Source: Candidatus Fimivivens faecavium
GTDB lineage: Bacteria; Bacillota; Clostridia; Oscillospirales; Ruminococcaceae
Direction: 5' to 3'
Assembly (NCBI GenBank): GCA_018716105.1
Contig: DVKH01000012.1
Coordinates: 1,225-65,224 of the forward strand
Length of the DNA stretch: 64,000 nt
The notes beneath the pieces were generated by a model. It made no database searches. It had not been told where the DNA came from and worked only from the letters and a program-made list of their open reading frames with translations. Shown here in pieces: positions 20,664-22,808 of the stretch; position 1 is the stretch's first letter; each line of letters opens with the position of its first letter. The position numbers and the translations under genes are program-made.

Positions 20664-20703
20664 CTTCCTTTTGTTCCCGTCAATCTTCGCCGCCTCAGGT
20701 TAG

Positions 20704-20721
20704 AGTTAGAATATACTAACT
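20704..20721. promoter_or_regulatory. iron-box-like palindrome AGTTAG-AATATA-CTAACT just downstream of the feoA promoter
   Basis: Read directly; the arms are exact reverse complements. Confidence 0.55.
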
Positions 20722-20733
20722 TCTTTTGGCCAC

Positions 20734-20762
20734 AGTTTAATACTGCTAACTAATTTTGTCAA
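20734..20762 (-). promoter_or_regulatory. feoA promoter TTGACA-17-TAAACT with a TTAGTTAGC half-site in the spacer
   Basis: Minus-strand hexamers (plus-strand TGTCAA 20757-20762, AGTTTA 20734-20739). Confidence 0.45.
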
Positions 20763-20898
20763 TGATCTCGAAAACATCTTTTCACGCCTTGTGCGGAAAA
20801 TAGATATATGATAGAATAGGGAAAATTTGAACGGCTTTATTTTGTGTAGAACGGCACAAATTGTTTCTTTCGGCTAACAGTTTCGGGAGGTATTCTGC

Positions 20899-21276
20899 GT
20901 GAAGATTTATGAATCGGCCGAGGATTATCTTGAGTCCATTTTGGTTTTGAAAAAAGAAAAGGGCGCGGTCCGCTCCATAGACATCGCCCATCATTTCAAT
21001 TATTCGAAGCCCAGCGTCAGCCGTGCAATGAGCCTATTGCGCAGGAACGGGTATATCGTCATGGATCAGGAGGGCTGGATCACCCTCACCGAGACGGGGC
21101 TTGCCGTCGCGGAGCGCATCTATGAGCGGCATCGCTGCCTCACCGACTGGCTGATCGCGCTCGGCGTCACGCCCGACGTCGCGGCAAAGGACGCATGCCG
21201 GATCGAACACGATATCAGCGAAGAGACCTTTCAGAAATTTAAAGAACACGCCGGCCGGAAATCCAATGCAGAATAA
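20899..21276 (+). CDS. DtxR/MntR-family metal-dependent transcriptional regulator (two-domain form, no SH3 domain)
   Basis: 125 aa; ESAEDYLESILVLKKEKGAVRSIDIAHHFNYSKPSVSRAMSLLRRNGYI winged HTH, with ERHRCLTDWL and DACRIEHDIS (CxxEH) metal-ligand positions. GTG start with a GGGAGG RBS. Confidence 0.85.
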   Translation: MKIYESAEDYLESILVLKKEKGAVRSIDIAHHFNYSKPSVSRAMSLLRRNGYIVMDQEGWITLTETGLAVAERIYERHRCLTDWLIALGVTPDVAAKDACRIEHDISEETFQKFKEHAGRKSNAE

Positions 21277-21384
21277 ACGCGCGGCCGCTTCTTGAGGGCC
21301 GGCTCAAATCAGCCGGCGACGCCGCGCTGCAATCCCCTTTGCTGCTGTCGGGCGGCCTGCGGCCATGACCAATCATTTTTATTG

Positions 21385-21413
21385 AGAAAACCGCTTGACA
21401 AGATAGTTAGCAT
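21385..21413 (+). promoter_or_regulatory. promoter TTGACA-17-TAATAT for DUF3793-flavodoxin
   Basis: Hexamers at 21385-21390 and 21408-21413. Confidence 0.5.
21397..21410. promoter_or_regulatory. perfect 14-bp palindrome TTAGCATATGCTAA inside the promoter spacer/-10
   Basis: Read directly. It occupies the spacer and overlaps the -10. Confidence 0.6.
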
Positions 21414-21481
21414 ATGCTAATATGATTTCAGTTTCCAAAATCAATCAGCAAAAGGCTTCGCGCCTTTTCTTTTTCCCCAAA

Positions 21482-21499
21482 GGTTAGCTTCAGCTAACC
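21482..21499. promoter_or_regulatory. 18-bp palindrome GGTTAGC-TTCA-GCTAACC in the 5' UTR of the DUF3793 gene
   Basis: Read directly. The half-sites resemble the DtxR/IdeR iron box (TTAGGTTAGCCTAACCTAA). Confidence 0.6.
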
Positions 21500-21518
21500 A
21501 CAACTGAAAGGAGAGGTC

Positions 21519-22082
21519 ATGAAGAGCCGGCTGGAAGAAATCATCGCCTGCCACTGCGCCCCGGCGCTGGCGGGAATTAAACCCGCAAACCTGGTGTCCT
21601 GCCGCATCGAAGCGGATCCTTCACTGGAACAGGAACTCGAACAGCTCAACCGGCGCCTGAACGTGAACGGGATCCTCTTTCGCCCGGTCTGCCGGTGCAA
21701 AAACCGGCTTCTGCTGCTGGTCTACCGCAAGCGGACGCTGGAGCGGCACCTTGAAAACCCGCGCCTGACGCAGTATCTCCGCCGTGCGGGCTACCCGGAG
21801 GGGCCTTTGGAAGAACTCCTCCTTCATCTGGAATCCCGCCTCGCGGCGGGCGGAGAGGAATTCCCCCATGAAATCGGCATCTTTCTCGGCTATCCGCCGG
21901 AAGACGTCGAGGGTTTTCGCAGGGACCGCGGCAGGAACTGCAAATTCAGCGGCTATTGGAAGGTCTACGGGGACGCGGAACGCACAAAAGAGCTGTTCGC
22001 GCGGTACACCCGATGCCGGAACGCGCTGTTGGGCAAAGTGCAGGGCGGCCGCTCGATCGCCGACCTGTTCGGCGCCGCATAG
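21519..22082 (+). CDS. DUF3793-family protein
   Basis: 187 aa; ...HCAPALAGIKPANLVSC...FPHEIGIFLGYPPEDVEGF...GYWKVYGD matches my recollection of DUF3793. This family is commonly paired with flavodoxin in Clostridia. Confidence 0.7.
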   Translation: MKSRLEEIIACHCAPALAGIKPANLVSCRIEADPSLEQELEQLNRRLNVNGILFRPVCRCKNRLLLLVYRKRTLERHLENPRLTQYLRRAGYPEGPLEELLLHLESRLAAGGEEFPHEIGIFLGYPPEDVEGFRRDRGRNCKFSGYWKVYGDAERTKELFARYTRCRNALLGKVQGGRSIADLFGAA

Positions 22083-22111
22083 ACCAACACTCATTTCCAG
22101 GGAGGTAACCT

Positions 22112-22540
22112 ATGAAAATCGCAGTCATCTACTGGACCCAAACCGGCAATACCGGAGCGATGGCCAGCGCCGTCGCCGAGGGCGCGCGCGAGGCCGGGGC
22201 AGAACTCGACCTGCTCACCGTTTCTGAAACAAGCGCCTGCGCCGCGGCCGGTTACGACCGTCTCGCGCTGGGCTGTCCCGCTATGGGCGCGGAAGTGCTG
22301 GAGGAAGGCGAATTCGAACCGTTTTTCACCGAGCTTGAACCGCGCCTTTCCGGCAAAACGGTCGCCCTGTTCGGTTCCTACGGCTGGGGCGACGGCGAAT
22401 GGATGCGCCAGTGGCAGGACAGGACGCTGTCCGCAGGGGCTTCCATCGTCGGCGGCGAAGGTCTGATCGCAAACGAAACGCCCGACGAAGACGCGCTTGC
22501 AGCCTGCCGGGAGCTTGGCCGGAAACTTGCCGCCGGCTGA
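22112..22540 (+). CDS. fldA: short-chain flavodoxin
   Basis: 142 aa; MKIAVIYWTQTGNTGAMA FMN-phosphate loop and GSYGWGDGEWM. Confidence 0.9.
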   Translation: MKIAVIYWTQTGNTGAMASAVAEGAREAGAELDLLTVSETSACAAAGYDRLALGCPAMGAEVLEEGEFEPFFTELEPRLSGKTVALFGSYGWGDGEWMRQWQDRTLSAGASIVGGEGLIANETPDEDALAACRELGRKLAAG

Positions 22541-22594
22541 CCGGATGAAAGGGGCGCCCTGACTTCGGCCGTCCTTCAACATGATATCCTTCTT

Positions 22595-22618
22595 CGAGGG
22601 GAGCCATGTCCCCTCTTT
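22595..22618 (+). terminator. terminator after flavodoxin
   Basis: GAGGGGA-loop-TCCCCTC followed by TTTG. A second GC hairpin lies at about 22629-22663. Confidence 0.5.
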
Positions 22619-22681
22619 GTCCCCTCCTGGCGCGCACAGCCAAGCCCGTTGGCCGTGCGCGCCCTCTCGTATCTTCCGCGG

Positions 22682-22710
22682 TTGACAGGCGGGCCGGCCC
22701 GTGATACTAT
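22682..22710 (+). promoter_or_regulatory. promoter TTGACA-17-TACTAT for the second regulator
   Basis: Hexamers at 22682-22687 and 22705-22710. Confidence 0.5.
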
Positions 22711-22713
22711 AAA

Positions 22714-22727
22714 TTAGCTAAAGCTAA
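22714..22727. promoter_or_regulatory. 14-bp palindrome TTAGCT-AA-AGCTAA at the predicted transcription start
   Basis: Read directly, 4 nt downstream of the -10. Confidence 0.6.
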
Positions 22728-22808
22728 CCATTGCGCAGTTATGGATCGTATTTCGCGCAGGAGCGCCTCCTGTGCTGTTTTCCGCGCCAATCCGAAGGAG
22801 GGCCGGCC

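Follow-up and report, generated by a model that had tools for sequence, protein, structure and literature searches.

A candidate DtxR/MntR-family operator shared by iron-gene promoters within a serine-recombinase element of Candidatus Fimivivens faecavium

In a gut Clostridium, four palindromes lie among a feoA gene, two genes for DtxR-like regulators (dtxR1 and dtxR2) and a DUF3793-flavodoxin gene pair, and the locus raises the question of whether they form one set of metal-responsive operators and which protein would read them. The locus belongs to a 64,000-nucleotide stretch of Candidatus Fimivivens faecavium (assembly GCA_018716105.1, contig DVKH01000012.1, positions 1,225 to 65,224 of the forward strand), which we call the window and whose own numbering is used for its features. 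An original prediction from the sequence had described four iron-box-like palindromes here, and direct reading of positions 20400-23100 together with a pattern search recovered all of them, three at the expected coordinates and the second at 21407-21420, the position given earlier (21397-21410) being 10 bases too low. With a probability of roughly 0.8, the four palindromes represent one operator type for a metal-dependent repressor of the DtxR/MntR family at iron genes. The sites themselves, their significance, their position at promoters, their conservation beside the same genes and their co-occurrence with a regulator were established directly.

A single register was found in all four boxes, TTAGN-N4-NCTAA, which is TTAG-N6-CTAA, with the extended form rGTTAGC-N4-GCTAACy. 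Half-site spacings of N2, N4 and N6 had been reported for them because the arms were drawn at different lengths. Every window box overlaps or directly trails a promoter with 10 of 12 matches in a sigma-70 consensus scan, and the three promoters so identified, those of feoA, the DUF3793-flavodoxin unit and the second regulator, are the near-consensus promoters that had been predicted. The operator O(feoA) (AGTTAGAATATACTAACT, 20704-20721; 14-mer core 20706-20719) is placed 12 nt 3' of the -10 box of the feoA promoter (TTGACA-17-TAAACT, minus strand, 20762-20734), at about +6 to +23. Two operators accompany the DUF3793-flavodoxin unit, as originally predicted, and this pairing is conserved in relatives. 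O1 (AGTTAGCATATGCTAATA, 21405-21422; core TTAGCATATGCTAA, 21407-21420) is located in the spacer of the promoter (TTGACA-17-TAATAT with TG ahead of the -10, plus strand, 21395-21423) and covers the first bases of the -10, and O2 (GGTTAGCTTCAGCTAACC, 21482-21499; core 21484-21497) is located in the leader, where its end is 22 nt from the DUF3793 ATG. The fourth operator, O(dtxR2) (AATTAGCTAAAGCTAACC, 22712-22729; core TTAGCTAAAGCTAA, 22714-22727), begins 2 nt past the -10 of the dtxR2 promoter (TTGACA-17-TACTAT, plus strand, 22682-22710) and spans the expected transcription start. To speak of sites at every cargo transcription unit, as had been done, was an overstatement, since a matrix scan detected no box above 9 bits at dtxR1 (20899-21276, its own promoter included) or at the recombinase unit.

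A chance origin of the four palindromes is excluded. In the window, TTAGNNNNNNCTAA was found four times; shuffled sequences gave an expectation of 0.07, and not one of 100 reached four. Across the 2.0-Mb assembly (59% G+C) the same pattern gave seven matches, and the spacings N0-N5 and N7-N12 gave 0-4 each. A weight matrix was then trained on 71 sites from 27 other named Oscillospiraceae genomes, none from this genome, and the genome was scanned with it. The four window sites scored 24.3 bits for O(feoA), 24.8 for O1, 26.8 for O(dtxR2) and 27.5 for O2, the top-scoring site of the genome, while a site at the chromosomal feoAB promoter scored 24.8 and a site at an ATP-binding cassette (ABC) exporter 21.8. 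The next match after these six good sites, a poor one within tilS, reached 13.7 bits. The window sites therefore top the genome ranking, and equally good palindromes in coding DNA did not appear. Both of the remaining good sites are outside the window. In the chromosomal feoA-feoB operon, the box GGTTAGAATTTGCTAACC begins 7 nt past a TTGACA-17-TATAAT promoter, and the sixth box (contig C18:20266-20285) is positioned between a two-gene ABC exporter and a gene for a putative TetR-type regulator, a label taken from sequence only.

The box is conserved well beyond this genome. Of 41 genomes from the same family and order, 35 contained GTTAG-N6-CTAAC; this pattern had 146 matches, compared with 58 for a reversed control. 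One arbitrary box match was taken from each of 30 genomes, and its neighbours were compared with the window proteins. In 18 of the 30 the neighbours were feoA, feoB, a DtxR1 homologue or DUF3793-flavodoxin, and a 19th box preceded DUF2325, which is missing from the flavodoxin operon of the window and heads a DUF2325-DUF3793-flavodoxin operon in relatives (loci L013, L020, L021, L074, L088 and L100). Further sampled boxes preceded genes for a ZIP transporter, an ArsP-type exporter, a NifS-like desulfurase, a pyruvate formate-lyase and a NuoE-like 2Fe-2S protein, and boxes before ABC exporters were present in three genomes, this one and those of L010 and L029. We also examined 80 named loci centred on DtxR1 homologues of 60-75% identity, which came from Anaerotruncus, Harryflintia, Marasmitruncus, Lawsonibacter, Pseudoflavonifractor and many Oscillospiraceae metagenome-assembled genomes. 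These contained 71 boxes, all in 27 loci, against 17 matches of the control pattern scattered over 850 kb, and in nearly all 27 box-bearing loci feoA(-feoA)-feoB is divergent from the regulator gene. Across 119 sites the consensus was rGTTAG[C/T]wwww[G/A]CTAACy, the fifth half-site base in relatives being C in 57% and T in 28%. Among 25 pairs of neighbouring boxes, 10 had a spacing of 34 bp, the preferred distance of tandem boxes, and pairs 34-70 bp apart were found before DUF2325/DUF3793-flavodoxin in L006, L013, L037, L074, L088 and L100. The half-sites degenerate almost independently, with positions 5 and 10 forming 60 Watson-Crick pairs versus 49 expected, and this near-independent decay of the arms favours a DNA site for a protein over an RNA stem.

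A candidate reader of the box is encoded within the same locus. dtxR1 (plus strand, 20899-21276) specifies a 125-residue two-domain regulator that belongs to the DtxR/MntR family, having a winged helix-turn-helix domain above the Pfam cut-off (PF01325, E=1.5e-10) and a PF02742 domain (E=1.4e-13) that retains the ligand positions. Of 30 genomes of at least 90% completeness that encode a close DtxR1 homologue, 29 had a strict box; of the 2 without such a homologue (G006 and G032), neither did. All DtxR1 homologues, with or without an adjacent box, share the helix SKPSVS[R]AM, and no residue signature separating box-adjacent from box-less homologues was found among the 80, so they form one family. 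The closest solved relative of DtxR1 is Escherichia coli MntR (2H09, E=7e-17), followed by Bacillus MntR proteins and then by IdeR/DtxR. In the alignment, MntR D8, E11, H77, E99, E102 and H103 correspond to DtxR1 D9, E12, H78, C100, E103 and H104, of which E12, H78, C100, E103 and H104 are invariant in the 80 homologues and position 9 is N in most and D in the others. From this comparison, the predicted metal site of DtxR1 is MntR-like with a Cys typical of DtxR/IdeR. According to both Pfam and the alignment, DtxR1 ends after domain 2 without a C-terminal SH3-like (FeoA-like) domain and is thus outside the three-domain DtxR/IdeR subfamily. The ancillary metal site of that subfamily (H79, E83 and H98) is presumably not shared either, as the equivalents of E83 and H98 in DtxR1 are T and A in an alignment to the DtxR sequence.

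The genome contains a second protein of this type. A chromosomal DtxR1 paralogue, encoded outside the window (contig C7:33952-34296), is 54% identical to DtxR1 and has the same SVSRAM recognition helix. No box was found near it, and the chromosomal feoAB box may have this paralogue as its resident regulator. A 435-residue open reading frame with the look of a membrane protein comes after the paralogue gene. Most relatives have one DtxR1-type copy. Two Fur-family genes are also encoded in the genome.

These observations are consistent with the following model, in which binding itself, the metal sensed and repression rather than activation are what we infer. Each box would probably be bound by one dimer of a short two-domain DtxR/MntR-family repressor, the candidates being DtxR1 and possibly the chromosomal paralogue with its almost identical recognition helix. 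When metal is plentiful, most likely Fe2+ and possibly Mn2+, the holo-repressor would sit on or just 3' of the -10, occlude the start region and block three strong sigma-70 promoters, those of feoA, DUF3793-flavodoxin and dtxR2; the same box is present at the chromosomal feoA-feoB promoter. Under iron scarcity the repressor would dissociate, and ferrous-iron uptake and flavodoxin, an iron-free electron carrier, would be turned on. Both repression and iron are supported by the promoter positions and by the content of the regulon.

Several points weigh against this model. DtxR1 is nearer in sequence to the Mn-sensing MntR than to DtxR/IdeR, and its ligand set is a hybrid, with D or N at the position of MntR D8 and Cys at that of MntR E99 (DtxR C102); from such a set the metal cannot be read. 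One complete relative, G016, has the regulator and no strict box. With the SVSRAM helix in both, DtxR1 and the chromosomal paralogue are indistinguishable as readers, and either could read the boxes. In addition, a preference for the G of GCTAA might come from Arg42 of DtxR1, which corresponds to IdeR Gln43; this explanation is weak because Arg occupies this position in only about 70% of orthologues.

Whether a second protein also reads the boxes is a question that dtxR2 itself poses. This gene (plus strand, 22809-23195, ATG at 22809) encodes a 128-residue DtxR-like paralogue without metal ligands, in which Pfam detected only the N-terminal DNA-binding domain PF01325. Alignment showed that neither DtxR2 nor its orthologues of six other genomes (L019, L034, L035, L074, L090 and L104) retain any of the ligand positions, and several of the orthologues have a CxC motif (such as SCLC or TCVC) at the position of DtxR1 E103/H104, where the window protein has only ALCAF. 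DtxR2 might bind all or some of the boxes, or heterodimerise with DtxR1, as a metal-independent second layer; DtxR2 would be made only once DtxR1 frees the dtxR2 promoter. Its recognition helix SRASVVK is similar to the SKPSVSR of DtxR1 despite the loss of every ligand, orthologues with equal losses are found beside dtxR1 or feo in at least six other genomes, and a box precedes dtxR2 here and its orthologue genes where this was checked (L034, L035 and L019), suggesting that dtxR2 is a conserved target of the circuit. Repression of a second DtxR paralogue is likewise known for Haloferax TroR (PMC10783522). However, one spacing and one consensus were found, so that the DNA calls for no second reader, most relatives have boxes but only one close DtxR1-type homologue, and the dimerisation domain of DtxR2 was not detected by Pfam. 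The original prediction had taken differing spacings as a sign of two regulators; this argument was rejected, since TTAG-N6-CTAA is common to all four sites. Taken together, a role of DtxR2 as a second reader seems rather unlikely, at perhaps one chance in a few.

A manganese regulon is less probable still. According to this explanation, Mn2+ would be the signal for an MntR-type repressor, and expression of the feo and flavodoxin genes would follow manganese, not iron. The best solved relatives of DtxR1 are indeed the E. coli and Bacillus MntR proteins, DtxR1 resembles MntR in having two domains and no SH3-like domain, the box is one base per hexamer off the enterobacterial MntR box (ATAGC versus TTAGC) with equal N4 spacing, and some sources annotate homologues as Mn-dependent. 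On the other hand, the regulon content, which includes feoA/feoB and flavodoxin as well as genes for NifS-like, ZIP and Fe-S proteins, is typical of iron, the 110 loci examined showed neither an NRAMP nor a Mn ABC importer next to a box, and the Cys at the MntR E99 position is that of the iron sensors DtxR and IdeR. In addition, ferrous sulfate represses feoAABC in the gut Clostridium Faecalibacterium duncaniae, where a flavodoxin gene is co-induced and no regulator was named (PMC10781979). These findings make manganese an improbable signal.

By far the least credible alternative is that the palindromes are not DtxR operators at all but sites of another factor, repeats of the recombinase or element, leader RNA stem-loops or chance, for although they sit within a serine-recombinase element and all but O1 would be part of a transcript, where 7-bp stems could form, the same box marks the promoter of the chromosomal feoAB genes and is found in many genomes that have no recombinase close by. 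O1 is in a promoter spacer and untranscribed, and no clear covariation or compensatory change between the arms was seen, which led us to reject the RNA stem. Chance is excluded by the counts and the matrix scan, and the box co-occurs with the DtxR homologue.

Besides blocking initiation, the candidate repressor could have a second role, to which the DUF3793 leader points. A terminator-like hairpin (plus strand, 21450-21478), with a 7-bp stem followed by the T-run CTTTTTCCCC, ends 9 nt before the TTAG of O2. In about 110 loci, the distance from the last hairpin T to the TTAG of a box peaked at 5-14 nt, with 26 cases versus about one per 5-nt bin elsewhere; loci with this arrangement include L034, L036, L037, L038, L051, L073 and L088. 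About 19 of the 26 were GC-rich hairpins, many of them just past the stop codon of a second feoA and ahead of the feoB ribosome-binding site, and in the other seven an upstream box was itself trailed by Ts. The box-to-ATG distance is 18 nt for feoB in L073 and 22 nt for O2, so there is no room for a promoter downstream of the box. We tentatively propose, as a possibility that we consider doubtful, that a box just past a terminator forms a metal-controlled roadblock-and-terminator module, inside leaders as at O2 or between feoA and feoB in relatives. Holo-repressor bound beyond the terminator would then decide whether polymerase arriving from upstream reads into the downstream genes. If true, this module would be a mode of action undescribed for DtxR-family repressors. 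The hairpin-box distance might alternatively reflect a weak internal promoter whose -35 is formed by the end of the T-run. This is a weak explanation: the geometry fits O1 of the window (TTGACA, 6 nt, TTAG), but in most sites the -10 would have to read TAACyn, and at L073 and O2 just 18-22 nt are left ahead of the ATG. A second terminator-like hairpin, with a 9-bp stem followed by TGTTTTCC, was observed in the leader of about 90 nt of dtxR2 (plus strand, 22755-22775), 28 nt past the dtxR2 box.

The genes behind the boxes were identified by Pfam. feoA (minus strand, 20442-20663; 73 residues; FeoA, E=8e-16) has orthologues divergent from dtxR1 in 27 related loci, and no feoB follows it in the window. 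The DUF3793 gene (plus strand, 21519-22082; PF12672, E=1e-55) and the short-chain flavodoxin gene (plus strand, 22112-22540; PF00258, E=2e-18) are situated between dtxR1 and dtxR2, and a large serine recombinase gene is found at 23442-24980. feoA is convergent with a truncated reading frame of a P-loop ATPase (plus strand, 19974-20363). In Anaerotruncus massiliensis AT3 (L034, 1754-9869), an N-terminal piece of a P-loop ATPase gene is followed by feoB-feoA, dtxR1, dtxR2, a serine recombinase gene and the C-terminal ATPase piece, and an uncultured Anaerotruncus (L038) displays the same arrangement. The same serine-recombinase element is thus inserted into the same P-loop ATPase gene in a second genus. 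By comparison with these loci, the cargo of the window has lost feoB and carries DUF3793-flavodoxin instead.

The guts of animals and humans harbour abundant Oscillospiraceae and related Clostridia, and in the literature that we searched neither this box nor a name for the iron-response regulator of these bacteria was found. With the box rGTTAGC-N4-GCTAACy and a candidate repressor in hand, the putative regulon becomes readable from genomes, comprising feo, DUF2325-DUF3793-flavodoxin, the ligand-less paralogue and ABC exporters. Moreover, the cargo of the excisable serine-recombinase element in the window bears the same box as the feoAB promoter of its host. The operator set is of a known kind, a single-dimer box of the DtxR/MntR family, and it appears to be undescribed for this clade.

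Among known systems, Treponema has a DtxR-like repressor, TroR, which responds to Mn and Fe and whose operator, an 18-bp dyad, is located at a sigma-70 promoter or close to one (PMC2628430). This operator was considered as the closest relative and rejected, since its half-site is TTTGAT...ATCAAA and that of the window boxes GTTAGC...GCTAAC. Enterobacterial MntR is more similar, being a two-domain repressor of similar length and the best solved-structure match, with a box, AACATAGCnnnnGCTATGTT (PMC1698941), whose geometry xTAGC-N4-GCTAx is shared. In contrast, its core is ATAGC where the window boxes have TTAGC, a difference of one base per hexamer, its flanks differ, and it has Glu at E99 where DtxR1 has Cys. 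The MntR regulon consists of mntH, sitABCD and mntP, whereas the window boxes accompany feo and flavodoxin genes (and dtxR), which makes iron the more likely signal, and they did not match AACATAGCnnnnGCTATGTT upstream of Mn transport genes.

Haloferax volcanii TroR, an iron-sensing member of the DtxR family, recognises the semi-palindrome TTTAGGC-NNN-CCTAAAA, tandem copies of which are spaced by about 30 bp (PMC10783522). The same register, the tandem motifs and a second DtxR paralogue as target are shared with the boxes described here, whereas the TTAGG half-site and the siderophore genes as targets are not.

In IdeR-DNA structures, a monomer recognises one CCTAA pentamer and a dimer the first and third pentamers of the iron box, and a 14-bp single-dimer consensus, TTAGGNNNNCCTAA, was proposed by the authors for Saccharopolyspora erythraea (PMC8464063). 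The full 19-bp iron box of four pentamers, which takes two dimers, is absent from the window, where no site has a second overlapping pentamer pair; in the genome, TTAG-N1-CTAA occurs once and TTAG-N11-CTAA four times, all on other contigs away from these loci. The window boxes also differ from the IdeR site in the fifth base (G/C in IdeR, C/G in TTAGC...GCTAA), and DtxR1 differs from IdeR and DtxR in being closer to MntR, without the SH3-like third domain and, presumably, the ancillary metal site. Nevertheless, the inverted pentamer pair of the single-dimer site has the register TTAG-N6-CTAA, identical to that of the window boxes. The original prediction of DtxR/IdeR-type, iron-box-like operators at promoters is thus backed by conservation, by co-occurrence with the regulator and by the per-dimer register of IdeR, and, as in the IdeR/DtxR system, one dimer per site at the promoters of iron genes would exert metal-dependent repression.

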